DNA from: an uncultured Bacilli bacterium
GTDB taxonomy: Bacteria; Bacillota_I; Bacilli_A; RF39; UBA660
DNA length: 27,395 nt
Direction of reading: 5' to 3'
NCBI GenBank assembly: GCA_947626095.1
Contig: CANQQV010000020.1
Span: forward strand, 1-27,395
The notes beneath the pieces were generated by a model. The model saw only the letters and a program-made list of their open reading frames with translations. It did not search any database and was not told the origin of the DNA. Of the stretch, positions 1 through 25,393 are shown in pieces. Within the stretch, counting starts at the first letter, position 1. Each line of letters begins with the position of its first letter. A program made the translations under genes and the position numbers.

Positions 1-836
1 TTATCTAAAGAATTTAAATATCTTTTTCCTTTTATATCATATCTTCCTATTTTATAAAAAGCAAAAGCATTACAAAAATAATCAATATATTTTTTTATAG
101 TTTTATCAGATATATAATCCTTTTGGGAATTAAGTTTTTTAGTAATATTCAATGTTGATGTAATATTAGAAATATTATCCATTAAAAAATTTCCTAGATT
201 ATTTAATATTTTTTCATTTCTTATATTATATTTTTCCTTAATATCTCTTATAATCAAAGTATTATAGACATCTTCAATATATTTATATTTATCATTTTGC
301 TCATTATAGACATAAGAACCTGGCATTCCACCATTTATAACATATTTATCAAAAGCTATATCAATATCATCATAGTTATAATATTTCATAAATTCCTTAA
401 AGGAAAATGGATAAATATCTATAGAAAAAGTTCTGCCAGTAAAAAGTGTTGCTAAATCACTACTCAATAAAAAGGCATTTGATCCAGTGATATAAATATC
501 ATATTTTTCCTCAGCGTGTAGCCAATTTATAACATTTTCAAAATTTTTACACATTTGGACTTCATCTATTAAAACAAAGTTATGCATTTTAGGAATATAA
601 TTATCAGCAACATAATCATATAATTTTTGATCATCTTTTAAAGAAGCAAATTTTTTTAAATTATAATTTATATGAATAATATTATAGTTATTAATATTTT
701 CTTCAATGTATTGCTTAAATGATTCTAAAAGTTTTGACTTACCAGAACGTCTTATACCTGTTATAACTTTTATCTCTGGGGTTCCAATTACATTAATCAA
801 TTTATTTAAATATCCTTCTCGTTTAATTAATTTCAT
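1..836 (-). CDS. AAA+ ATP-binding protein (AAA_14/DUF4143-type), runs off the window edge
   Basis: Not in the ORF track. Manual translation from ATG 836 gives MKLIKREGYLNKLINVIGTPEIKVITGIRRSGKSKLL (Walker A GIRRSGKS), then FVLIDEVQ (Walker B) and ITGSNAFLLSSDLATLFTGR. RBS AGGTGA. Confidence 0.9.
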   Translation of the reverse strand, partial: MKLIKREGYLNKLINVIGTPEIKVITGIRRSGKSKLLESFKQYIEENINNYNIIHINYNLKKFASLKDDQKLYDYVADNYIPKMHNFVLIDEVQMCKNFENVINWLHAEEKYDIYITGSNAFLLSSDLATLFTGRTFSIDIYPFSFKEFMKYYNYDDIDIAFDKYVINGGMPGSYVYNEQNDKYKYIEDVYNTLIIRDIKEKYNIRNEKILNNLGNFLMDNISNITSTLNITKKLNSQKDYISDKTIKKYIDYFCNAFAFYKIGRYDIKGKRYLNSLD

Positions 837-23561: not shown

Positions 23562-23587
23562 TAAAAAAAGTTCTTGTGACAAGAACT
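23562..23587 (-). terminator. Minus-strand terminator-like hairpin overlapping the -35 of the peptide promoter
   Basis: Perfect 9-bp inverted repeat AGTTCTTGT-n-ACAAGAACT (23569-23587) followed by a T run on the minus strand. Confidence 0.6.
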
Positions 23588-23602
23588 ATTCATTTTTATA
23601 AT
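23574..23602 (+). promoter_or_regulatory. Sigma-A promoter of the small-peptide mRNA
   Basis: TTGTGA (23574-23579), 17 bp, TATAAT (23597-23602). Predicted start at ~23609-23611, the first base of the long-range repeat. Confidence 0.65.
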
Positions 23603-23679
23603 AGTACATTGGATACATTTGAAATATATCAGATGTTTGCCCTTTCAATTATCAAAAGATAAAAGAAAGGGGTGATATT

Positions 23680-23757
23680 ATGACAAGAAGAGAAGCTTCT
23701 CTATATTTCATTATATTACTATTATTCTTTATAGTAATCACCTTACTATTTGGATAA
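23680..23757 (+). CDS. 25-aa hydrophobic peptide, candidate type I toxin (MTRREASLYFIILLLFFIVITLLFG)
   Basis: Below the ORF-track cutoff. Very strong RBS AGAAAGGGGTGA, single TM-length hydrophobic run, double TAA stop. Confidence 0.75.
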   Translation: MTRREASLYFIILLLFFIVITLLFG

Positions 23758-23758
23758 T

Positions 23759-23868
23759 AAAAACATCCGATCTCAACATAAGTTGATTTCAGATGACATC
23801 CAAAGGGAATACATCTGATTCGAGCAATCAAATGTATCCTTTTTATTTTATGAAGTTTCCTTCATCTA
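23759..23868 (-). ncRNA. Candidate antisense (antitoxin) sRNA, ~110 nt
   Basis: Extended -10 TGTTATAAT (23874-23882, minus strand) with no ORF downstream. Terminator hairpin CATCTGA..TCAAC-TTAT-GTTGA..TCGGATG (23764-23795) followed by TTTTT. Confidence 0.55.
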
Positions 23869-23902
23869 TAGATATTATAACATAAAATGATAATTATAAT
23901 AA

Positions 23903-25393
23903 TTATTTCTTTAGTGTTTGTTCATTAATTTTCTTTTCATAAACGTTTTTTAAGACTCTAGCTAGTTTAACTCGAGACATATCAAGATCTAAGGAATTAG
24001 CTGCAAAGAAATCACTAACTAAGTTATGGGCTTGATCTTGATCCACTGTAAGACATACACCAAAGATGGCATTATATAGTTGTAGTAGTTCATTTTGAGT
24101 ATCTAATAACTTAGAGTTAATTAGAATATTAGTAAGAGAATCCATATCAAAGGCAAAGCGATGAGGTTGTTCATAATACTCATTTTTGCGAACATTATAT
24201 AAGGCTTCTAAGAAGGAATGAACGTCAATTGGCTGATTAGCTAAATCTGCTACCTCATACATATTTTCGATAACTTCTTCCATATTTAAATTAGTTGAGG
24301 AAAAAGCCATAAATTCTTTACCAGCAAAGCGTAGCAGCCAATTAATATGATCATTTACTATCCTAGTGGCAATTTTATAATGAGGTGGATGATTATTAAG
24401 CATTTCATCTTCAAATCTCATTATTTGGTCAGTATCAAAATATTTATAGGTTATGTAAGTAAATTTATCTTTTTCATTAGGAATTAATTGATTATAAGTT
24501 TTAGCAAAATACAAATAAGAATTTAAGAAACTAAGACTATTTTCATTTCTTTTAGAATCAAAAGTTGGATCAAAAAAGTATAAACCATTAATATTGTATT
24601 TATCATCTTTTAAATAAACTAAGCTACGAGCATGAGATTCATCTGATTGATTAACATCTAAAATAAAATCAATACATTTAAAACCAAGTTGTTCTAAAAT
24701 GGTGTTAAATAATCTGACGTATCCTAAGCAAACAATCTTATCACCTAATAAGACGGAGGTTAAATCTCTTGATTCATAGTATTTTTGATTATCATCTTCC
24801 TTAACATATACTCTATCTCTAATTAAATCATAAACATGAATTAAAATTTCTAAAGGACTATAGTTATAACATTTGATTTTGGTAACTATTTCATTAACAA
24901 TAGCAATTGTTTTTTCATACTCCGTTATAGTGATTGGATGACTATTACCTTGAATCTTAATTAAAACATTATACTTTTGAAGGTCAATATTCTTTTTTAA
25001 AGCAGCTAACTGATTTAAATCGATATCTAATACATTACCGATAACTATCTTTTTATTAGCTAACTCAGGATTAGTTGCTAAATAAGTAGAAATTTCAGCA
25101 AATTCACCATATATCTCTATTGAATCAGTAAGTAAATAATCACGTAAAACAGAATTCTTACTTAAATGTTTTAATAATTTTTTATCTTCTTTATCACCTA
25201 AAATACTATATTTTATAAAATCGTTTGCACTCTTTTGAAGATTAGAAGAGTTAATAATGTTACTTAATGGTTCATTTACATCAGTATAAACGTCTAAATT
25301 ATACTCATTTTCAGAACAACCAACAGTTATTTGTAATTTATCATTTTCTTCAATTGGATTAGTTGTAAAATAAATATTAACTAAAGCCTTCAT
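23903..25393 (-). CDS. Transglutaminase-like (Cys-His-Asp) domain protein
   Basis: IVCLGYVRLF...HARSLVYL...FFDPTFD triad pattern. No signal peptide. Confidence 0.75.
   Translation of the reverse strand: MKALVNIYFTTNPIEENDKLQITVGCSENEYNLDVYTDVNEPLSNIINSSNLQKSANDFIKYSILGDKEDKKLLKHLSKNSVLRDYLLTDSIEIYGEFAEISTYLATNPELANKKIVIGNVLDIDLNQLAALKKNIDLQKYNVLIKIQGNSHPITITEYEKTIAIVNEIVTKIKCYNYSPLEILIHVYDLIRDRVYVKEDDNQKYYESRDLTSVLLGDKIVCLGYVRLFNTILEQLGFKCIDFILDVNQSDESHARSLVYLKDDKYNINGLYFFDPTFDSKRNENSLSFLNSYLYFAKTYNQLIPNEKDKFTYITYKYFDTDQIMRFEDEMLNNHPPHYKIATRIVNDHINWLLRFAGKEFMAFSSTNLNMEEVIENMYEVADLANQPIDVHSFLEALYNVRKNEYYEQPHRFAFDMDSLTNILINSKLLDTQNELLQLYNAIFGVCLTVDQDQAHNLVSDFFAANSLDLDMSRVKLARVLKNVYEKKINEQTLKK

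Follow-up and report, generated by a model that had tools for sequence, protein, structure and literature searches.

At positions 23574-23902 of a 27,395-nucleotide (nt) stretch of DNA from an uncultured Bacilli bacterium (contig CANQQV010000020.1 of assembly GCA_947626095.1; the whole stretch is called the window here), a short open reading frame (ORF) is enclosed by segments that would pair with each other in RNA, which raises the question of what kind of element this is and what the pairing of its ends does. An earlier note, made from the letters alone, had proposed a two-state RNA switch, in which the nascent messenger RNA (mRNA) is blocked at its Shine-Dalgarno (SD) sequence, the completed 3' arm titrates the anti-SD, and an antisense RNA captures the 3' arm and returns the SD to the blocked state. 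The analysis reported here, in which the anatomy of the locus, its conservation, the covariation of its helices and the relative energies of its folds were computed, points to a chromosomal type I toxin-antitoxin-like module, in which an mRNA closed by its own ends would compete with a convergent antisense RNA for one 3' untranslated region (UTR). That the locus is such a module and works in the manner set out below is, on balance, probable.

The features are collected in Table 1, and the complementary segments, the local hairpin, ATCACCTT and the T tract that had been listed before all lie where the earlier note had placed them. Judged from the position of the plus-strand promoter, transcription is predicted to start at about 23609-23611, that is, with the opening bases of the 5' arm, and a promoter of the form TTGnnn-16..18-TAnnnT stands 4-9 nt upstream of that arm in 36 of the 46 near-full-length copies of the element. 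Homology with other genomes sets in at this predicted start and extends about 20-60 nt beyond the terminator, into the antisense promoter. The ORF, which combines a short charged N-terminus with a long hydrophobic stretch, is intact in 41 of the 46 copies, with the consensus MTKRE-x-S-[LQ]-F-I-I-I-L-L-L and a C-terminal Lys or Arg in 38 of the 41; the window copy ends in Gly. Column entropies at the three codon positions (0.62/0.32/0.80) follow a coding-type pattern, and a 59-amino-acid (aa) frame on the minus strand is not kept, a stop-free run of at least 59 codons being found in 16 of 45 copies. Searches of Pfam and NCBIfam at E values up to 10 gave no family for the 25-aa peptide, chance hits aside, and a scan against Rfam 15 gave seven matches, all far under the gathering score (best E 1.9).

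Table 1. Features of the putative module, in window coordinates.
Feature	Position	Strand	Description
Toxin mRNA promoter	23574-23602	+	sigma-70-type: TTGTGA, 17 nt, TATAAT; 10 of 12 consensus matches
P1, 5' arm	23611-23622	+	GGATACATTTGA, extreme 5' end of the mRNA; partner TCAAATGTATCC, 23828-39, 12/12
H5, local 5' hairpin	23615-23636	+	ACATTTGA / TCAGATGT; mutually exclusive with P1 and P2
P2, 5' arm	23628-23636	+	ATCAGATGT; partner ACATCTGAT, 23811-19, 9/9
P3	23640-45 with 23802-07	+	CCCTTT with AAAGGG; alternative pairing of the anti-SD
SD-sequestering hairpin	23640-23671	+	anti-SD CCCTTTC (23640-46) with GAAAGGG (23665-71) of the ribosome-binding site
25-aa hydrophobic ORF, putative type I toxin	23680-23757	+	own SD; MTRRE..., then about 18 hydrophobic residues
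ATCACCTT	23737-44	+	inside the ORF; proposed second anti-SD
Hmid hairpin	23764-23795	both	hairpin of the mRNA 3' UTR; on the minus strand, with TTTTTATTAT (T5), intrinsic terminator of the antisense RNA
SD-like decoy AAAGGG	23802-23807	+	can take the anti-SD (P3); also base of the terminator stem
H3, mRNA terminator hairpin and T tract	23805-23849	+	GGGAATACATCTGATT / AATCAAATGTATCC; hairpin 23805-40
T tract	23840-49	+	TTTTTATTTT
Predicted antisense RNA, about 110 nt	23867 to about 23755	-	convergent; ends inferred from promoter and terminator
Antisense promoter	23874-23902	-	extended -10 TGTTATAAT (complement of 23874-82); -35 degenerate here (TTATTA, 23897-23902)

The RNAfold check that the earlier note had called for is borne out by the RNA from 23605 to 23850 (246 nt), the minimum free energy (MFE) of which is -76.2 kcal/mol, against -39.1 +/- 4.3 for 200 dinucleotide shuffles, none of them as good (z = -8.67). 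In both the MFE structure and the ensemble of the window copy, P1, P2 and the local SD hairpin coexist, and P3 has a probability of 0.00; the arms of P2 and P3 both fall within an 18-nt inverted repeat that is 89% complementary. The two halves of the terminator hairpin H3 are at the same time the 3' arms of P2 (23811-19) and P1 (23828-39), so that H5 and H3 together are the alternatives to P1 and P2 together. H5 is predicted when the 3' UTR is blocked (probability 0.97) or in the best local-only fold, where H3 also appears; H3 is paired in 89.1% of cells across the homologues described below, with a C.A mismatch in 28 of 45. The end-paired fold is more stable than the best local-only fold by a mean of 10.2 kcal/mol (9.0 in the window copy), a margin that should let it displace the local hairpins on which termination depends.

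Conservation of this pairing was assessed in A1, a MAFFT alignment of 45 near-full-length homologues, which are interrelated, so that counts drawn from it overstate independence. P1 (12 pairs) is paired in 98.1% of cells and P2 (9 pairs) in 98.0%, against 33-42% in slid controls. Compensatory pairs occur in P1 at columns 9/272 (AU in 34, GC in 7 and GU in 3 sequences) and 8/273 (CG in 36, UG in 6, UA in 2), and the innermost pair of P2, 29/249, is UA in 21, CG in 17, UG in 2 and something else in 5; column 29 pairs poorly with its partner in H5 (AU in 23, other in 22) and therefore tracks P2 and not H5. On a quick maximum-likelihood tree from which the arm columns had been left out, the Watson-Crick switches need at least 6, 4 and 2 changes. 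Without a supplied structure, RNAalifold recovers P1, P2, three pairs of P3 and Hmid, and the SD hairpin is absent from its consensus. Among the 945 cells of P1 and P2, 864 are Watson-Crick, 62 G.U, 16 A.C and 3 other, and this excess of G.U over A.C is strand-specific and therefore argues for pairing in the plus-strand RNA and not for a repeat at the DNA level.

A DNA-level origin had been raised in the earlier note, and on such a reading the inverted repeats would be the ends of a miniature inverted-repeat transposable element (MITE) or another repeat and have nothing to do with RNA structure. The repeats do look terminal, lie about 230 bp apart and occur in several copies per genome among relatives. 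They nevertheless begin at the predicted transcript start, finish in the terminator and enclose a conserved coding ORF with its SD, and the conserved unit takes in two promoters that lie outside them. Copies stand head to tail at spacings of about 345-350 bp, and no flanking duplication was seen at the locus, only an AT-rich 22-nt repeat of 77% identity. With the strand-specific mismatches (62 against 16) and the arms that differ wholly between subfamilies while remaining complementary, a MITE or similar repeat is extremely improbable here.

The pairing extends well beyond the close homologues. In 48 of 49 divergent units, 10 or more of the first 30 nt are bound to the last 60 nt in the unconstrained MFE structure, and 15 or more in 43 of the 49; the arm sequences of these units are quite different and their layout is the same, and two such units lie in the window's own genome. 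The compensatory changes in the 45 homologues and the rebuilding of the helix in these relatives answer in the affirmative the call for covariation in the two arms. In A3, an alignment fitted to the covariance model, all 12 pairs of P1 and all 9 of P2 change on both sides, with 511 such cells against 130 +/- 11 after shuffling, figures that are to be read with the facts that A3 leans towards the model structure and includes five low-scoring opposite-strand rows. A comparison free of any alignment gave a mean of -30.5 kcal/mol for the duplex between the 5' 30 nt and the 3' region of the same unit, against -16.0 for non-cognate pairs (94 units). Two further measures were set aside: a tally in which only 28 of 94 units had an own 3' end that outdid every end of a different type, as ungapped identity mislabels arms of the same type, and single-linkage clustering of arm types, which chained nearly all units. 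On the evidence of alignments and predicted folds, then, the pairing of 5' and 3' ends is real and conserved, and is a universal feature across the subfamilies.

The minus strand carries the second half of the putative module. The extended -10 element TGnTAnnnT of the antisense promoter is present in 44 of the 46 copies and occurs together with a TTGnnn -35 in 38 of the 46, the window copy being without the TTG; the pattern of the antisense terminator is present in 41 of the 46. In the predicted RNA the complement of 23850-65 folds as the 5' hairpin, that of H3 as the central hairpin and that of Hmid as the terminator, and this fold of three hairpins has a z of -5.66. These hairpins are conserved across the 45 copies, with covariation, and Hmid is paired in 96.8% of cells, with changes on both sides at four pairs. 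The C.A mismatch in the terminator stem of the mRNA corresponds to a U.G pair in the antisense hairpin. The antisense RNA is fully complementary to the 3' UTR of the mRNA and therefore carries a copy of the mRNA 5' arm; in turn, H5 is a short copy of its central hairpin. The antisense RNA with such a copy, which had been proposed from the single locus, is thus strongly predicted by its promoter, terminator, fold and covariation.

Some finer features of this RNA may be added. Its 5' hairpin (23850-65, minus strand) is located beyond the mRNA 3' end, and the changes in the stem of that hairpin appear compensatory by eye (CAAG/CTTG, GAAG/CTTC, GAGA/TCTC) around a conserved GGAAA loop; RNAalifold missed the hairpin as MAFFT had misaligned its two variants, and its covariation was accordingly judged by eye. 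The GGAAA loop is complementary to a UUUCC ahead of the anti-SD in most homologues, where the window copy has UUUG. The loop of the terminator hairpin (23820-23827; A1 columns 259-264) is the most variable part of the 3' UTR; copies that are tandem or co-resident often disagree there at 1-3 bases (as do L012a/b, L014a/b and L046a/b/c), a pattern that would fit loop-loop recognition keeping each antisense RNA specific for its own mRNA.

The effect of the closure on translation is where the proposed switch had to be revised. The SD hairpin is paired in 92.6% of cells and changes on both sides at five of its seven pairs among the 45 sequences, and the SD is predicted to sit inside this CCCTTTC hairpin both in the nascent mRNA and in the antisense-bound form, in agreement with the earlier note. 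In the full-length RNA, 25 of the 45 homologues are predicted to have the CCC of the anti-SD paired with the GGG of the 3' decoy and 14 to have it paired with the SD; SD pairing was scored by region, since alignment-column probabilities give false zeros for shifted homologues. Opening the ribosome site, defined as positions -15 to +5 around the start codon, takes on average 11.8 kcal/mol when the mRNA is free and 15.0 when its 3' UTR is blocked, and in 40 of 45 the free form has the lower cost by more than 1 kcal/mol; the window copy gives 13.5 free and 18.1 blocked. Holding unpaired the 7-nt AAGGGA segment alone takes the cost up to 16.0, with a rise in 41 of 45, and in these models it is this 3' segment that accounts for the difference. 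The titration of the anti-SD by the 3' arm is thus predicted for a majority of homologues, with modelled opening costs in its direction, and not for the window copy, where the SD hairpin keeps a probability of 0.99 in the full-length mRNA.

In no state is the SD itself predicted to be free. With mean unpaired probabilities of 0.16 in the free mRNA, 0.10 in the blocked and 0.13 in the nascent form, it is mostly paired throughout, and once the anti-SD has gone it re-pairs with the G.U-rich codons at about 9-13 and stays about 84% paired. These codons take the part of alternative SD partner that had been assigned to ATCACCTT; the latter is not predicted to pair in this way and is not conserved (ATCAC in about a quarter of the alignment rows, judged by eye). 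A strict switch, in which the end-paired mRNA is the translatable ON form and the antisense RNA turns it OFF by taking the 3' arm, would account for the 25 of 45 homologues with the anti-SD on the decoy, for an RNAalifold consensus that holds the decoy pairing and no SD hairpin, and for the decoy-dependent fall in opening cost, and an effect of this kind exists in bsrG/SR4 according to the available excerpts of PMC3834814. Yet the re-pairing with codons about 9-13, the SD hairpin kept by the window copy itself, the want of covariation in P3 and the weak or inconsistent effect in divergent subfamilies, all of which keep the end-pairing, make it rather unlikely, and what is predicted is at most a graded change in place of the on/off switch first suggested.

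The converse, that the end-paired mRNA is an inert store whose translation, and perhaps whose binding of the antisense RNA, needs processing at the 3' (or 5') end, follows a logic established for hok and aapA (PMC6733600, as far as excerpted). Its basis here would be that folding predictions make the end-paired form the ground state, with a margin of about 10 kcal/mol, that both ends are buried and that the ribosome site takes about 12 kcal/mol to open. When the 3' arm is removed or blocked, however, the lock on the SD is predicted to become tighter and not looser. The antisense RNA targets the 3' UTR here, whereas those of hok and aapA target a 5' region exposed by processing (T1TAdb, PMC8594479, in the part available), and the 3' arm is the terminator itself, so that trimming would delete the antisense target too. 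Such a store is unlikely, and the precedent of hok and aapA that the earlier note had cited has the wrong polarity; bsrG/SR4 fits better.

The mechanism preferred here starts from a plus-strand transcript of about 240 nt for a 25-aa membrane-type peptide and a convergent minus-strand RNA of about 110 nt. That both are transcribed, that the peptide is toxic, which RNases take part and in which direction translation is moved are points that we infer. The nascent mRNA would fold into local hairpins, namely the 5' hairpin, the anti-SD:SD hairpin, a start-codon hairpin, Hmid and the terminator, of which the anti-SD and start-codon hairpins would hold it untranslatable. Once the terminator has formed and the RNA is released, H5 and H3 would swap strands to give P1 and P2, leaving a compact mRNA with both ends paired that would be nuclease-protected, long-lived and poorly translated. 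This closure would pit the 5' arm of the mRNA against the antisense RNA for one 3' UTR sequence. An antisense RNA that gained the 3' UTR would form a duplex as substrate for RNase III, and the expelled 5' arm would refold as H5, with about four unpaired 5' bases open to decay that depends on the 5' end; it would also remove the decoy, leaving the anti-SD without an alternative partner and the ribosome site held tighter. In the models this tightening amounts to about 3-5 kcal/mol in the window's subfamily and would be graded, not on/off. The genome encodes RNase III and two RNase J paralogues. The conserved job of the closure is most likely twofold: a protected, poorly translated mRNA and a competition between its 5' arm and the antisense RNA.

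A simpler proposal keeps the first part of this and drops translation altogether: end-pairing would merely shield the ends from RNases, and the antisense RNA would act by duplex cleavage alone. It would explain why end-pairing is found in 48 of 49 divergent units and in 45 of 45 homologues and an overlap with the anti-SD in just 19 of 48; the first transcribed base is paired, and genes for RNase J and RNase III are present. Precedents are the 5' upstream helix of Enterococcus faecalis par RNA I (PMC7472228) and the use of degradation alone by txpA/RatA and bsrE/SR5 (PMC6562991), both as given in excerpts of these sources. The inner end of the long-range helix nonetheless reaches the anti-SD in the window's subfamily, and the conserved AAGGGA decoy cuts the modelled opening cost by about 4 kcal/mol; a role in stability alone therefore seems rather improbable.

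Several points weigh against the module working as preferred here, beyond the kinship of the homologues and the lean of A3 already mentioned. The energetics come from equilibrium nearest-neighbour models only. The CCC:GGG core of P3 is pairable in 91.9% of cells with almost no covariation, and both of its strands are needed twice, the GGG in the terminator stem and the CCC in the SD hairpin. The SD, as seen above, stays mostly paired in all states, and the window copy retains its SD hairpin at the expense of P3 when full-length. In the divergent subfamilies the opening cost is 12.3 kcal/mol free against 13.7 blocked (lower by more than 1 in 31 of 48, higher by more than 1 in 7 of 48), and nucleotides common to the long-range helix and the anti-SD helix are found in only 19 of 48 units; by these models, the reach of the end-pairing into the anti-SD would be a subfamily trait with a graded effect. 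The window copy is also atypical, with its C-terminal Gly, an antisense -35 without TTG and a stronger SD hairpin (GGGG, 7 bp), and may be an attenuated or more tightly self-locked copy.

A bolder version of the preferred mechanism would see in the mRNA's 5' end an inbuilt duplicate of the antitoxin's central hairpin, which rivals the antitoxin for the terminator region and makes the mRNA a three-state device with orthogonal arm barcodes. This is offered tentatively and is rather doubtful. If true, the mRNA would pass from a pair of local hairpins to the end-paired form and on to the antisense duplex as its three states; one terminator hairpin would be reused in turn as terminator, clamp partner and antitoxin target; and the arms of clamp and antitoxin would have diversified into mutually orthogonal 'barcodes', three of them in this genome, allowing several modules to share one small genome without cross-talk.

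The distribution of the element bears on whether it is a toxin-antitoxin pair at all. By BLAST-type searches at E <= 1e-8, the unit turns up in 72 of the 299 further genomes from the family of the window genome, a family that makes up nearly the whole order in the sample, and, with the window genome included, 47 of 128 genera are positive; 349 genomes that represent 29 other families of the class were all negative. At E <= 1e-4, a covariance model built from the alignment recognised the element in 30 of the 80 further genera of this family, with a maximum of seven matches in one genome, and in none of 93 genomes from 23 other families. A scan of species-representative genomes for the exact pattern gave at least 120 stretches; among the matches listed these come mostly from uncultured Bacilli bins, and their isolate names suggest an origin in the gut of rabbit, sheep, goat, mouse, chicken and human hosts. 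A few of the bins among the matches listed are titled Muribaculaceae, Tenericutes or Erysipelotrichaceae, and such off-lineage titles probably reflect differences in labelling or binning and not true spread. The window's own genome is rated 7.9% contaminated. The 341-bp unit had no match in plasmid or phage collections, and the element pattern none in viral contigs.

Within genomes, copies often lie head to tail. BLAST finds only the window copy in its own genome, and the covariance model adds two more divergent modules, on contig 1 (83228-83454; L205:129-355) and contig 3 (22754-23007; L206:125-378), which encode other hydrophobic peptides (30 aa and 25 aa) between other self-complementary end arms in the same architecture; the contig-1 module has an antisense promoter and a 5' hairpin as in the main family. 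The toxin ORF is broken in 5 of the 46 copies, L054 and L058 carry deletions within the toxin part, and at seven loci (L036, L038, L062, L063, L064, L066 and L067) the antisense/3' UTR part stands alone, without 5' arm or toxin and with at most the last toxin codons. These look, from their sequences, like orphan antitoxin genes after loss of the toxin. Loss of a toxin with its antitoxin kept, tandem amplification and a patchy distribution are typical of toxin-antitoxin modules, and the population pattern suggests a turnover of this kind. The only other genome of the same genus (G144, 89% complete) is without the element, and its dnaE neighbourhood differs and is thus uninformative on insertion.

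This pattern has to be set beside the thought that the ORF encodes a small membrane protein that does no harm and is controlled by a cis-antisense RNA, with the RNA architecture as described and no toxin-antitoxin pair. The peptide is without a family assignment in Pfam and NCBIfam, and the window copy is without the usual basic residue at its C-terminus, as that reading would allow; but the antisense-only remnants, the deleted and frameshifted toxin genes, the tandem amplification, the patchy distribution and a ribosome site that is very tightly buried all tell against it, and it is judged quite unlikely.

The immediate neighbourhood deserves a short description. Upstream of the antisense promoter, a 496-aa ORF on the minus strand (23903-25393), for which only a weak transglutaminase-core match was found (E 0.1, below the cut-off), has its stop codon adjoining that promoter, and read-through from it could supply antisense transcript to the window copy. 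On the other side, 23569-23587 form an 8-bp hairpin without mismatches, flanked by a T run at either end, which resembles a bidirectional terminator and extends into the -35 of the toxin promoter; read on the minus strand, this hairpin would end read-through from the 496-aa gene and the antisense RNA ahead of the dnaE promoter region. At the equivalent position, many homologues keep a spacer of the form AAGAAC..AAATGTTTG.

Together, these results add a well-delimited, structure-supported type I toxin-antitoxin-like family with several subfamilies. Full-text searches, with the T1TAdb tables and the candidate lists in the supplement of Fozo et al. 2010 outside their coverage, returned nothing specific on it, and no such system appears to have been described before in this order of uncultured small-genome gut Bacilli. 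The covariance model is also a tool for annotating 25-32-aa genes that stand unannotated in gut metagenome bins. An ORF of 25 aa is smaller than gene callers record.

Among known systems, to the extent that the cited sources were available in excerpt, hok/Sok of plasmid R1 and aapA/IsoA of Helicobacter pylori share with the module a 5'-3' long-distance interaction in the toxin mRNA, local SD-sequestering hairpins that arise first in transcription and then yield to the long-range fold, and several anti-SDs (PMC6733600). They differ in that their long-range fold hides the SD and 3' processing activates translation (PMC6733600), whereas the SD here would be hidden by a local anti-SD, and in that their antisense RNA pairs with the 5' region or the ORF (PMC8594479) and not with the 3' UTR. 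The par locus (Fst/RNA II) of E. faecalis pAD1 is likewise a Firmicute type I system with convergent transcription and a 5' stem-loop that hides the SD, and an intramolecular helix sequesters the extreme 5' end of its toxin mRNA and stabilises it (PMC7472228). In par, the RNAs make contact through direct repeats close to the 5' end and through a bidirectional terminator that they share (PMC7472228), whereas the terminators here are separate (H3 and the complement of Hmid) and the antisense RNA overlaps the 3' UTR only; no match to the Fst family and, in a repeat search of the locus, no direct repeats of the DRa/DRb type were found. The B. subtilis systems txpA/RatA, bsrE/SR5 and yonT/SR6 also have 3'-overlapping antisense RNAs, with about 100-140 nt of complementarity and RNase III-dependent decay; their toxins are longer and unrelated, and in the excerpts of PMC6562991 no conformational change at the SD was seen with RatA or SR5.

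The closest experimentally studied precedent is, in our analysis, bsrG/SR4 of Bacillus subtilis and not hok or aapA. As excerpted from PMC3834814, a helix joins nt 1-35 of the bsrG mRNA to nt 232-262, the complementarity of SR4 lies with the 3' part, and SR4 binding leaves nt 1-33 single-stranded and lengthens the SD helix from 4 to 8 bp. The mechanism preferred here follows the logic that experiments have established there. Both systems thus consist of convergent genes with an antisense RNA complementary to the 3' part of a toxin mRNA whose 5' end joins a 3' segment in a long closing helix. In bsrG/SR4 the antisense RNA frees the 5' end and lengthens the SD helix, and here it would free the 5' end and may hold the SD more tightly; the duplex is also an RNase substrate in bsrG/SR4 (PMC3834814, PMC6562991, in excerpt), as is proposed here. 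Set beside the bsrG/BsrE/BsrH group, and judged by family profiles alone, the peptide here is without a Pfam or NCBIfam match, and the host is an uncultured small-genome gut Bacilli lineage. The RNAs differ as well. Here the terminator hairpin itself supplies the 3' strand of the closing helix, and termination and end-pairing therefore exclude each other, whereas the bsrG terminator SL4, in the excerpted account, lies outside helix P1. Further differences from bsrG are that the 5' arm folds as a copy of the antisense central hairpin, that the clamp has an SD-like decoy at its inner end, that arms differ between co-resident modules, and that the antisense RNA is predicted at about 110 nt against 183 nt for SR4. 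The end-paired toxin mRNA is thus a known kind of RNA control, met here in a previously undescribed family. This family provides a natural series of mRNAs with one architecture (pairing of the 5' end with the terminator, an anti-SD hairpin and a 3'-overlapping antisense RNA) and differing arms, in which the coupling of end-pairing, termination and antisense control, and also the generality of the bsrG/SR4 mechanism, can be put to the test.

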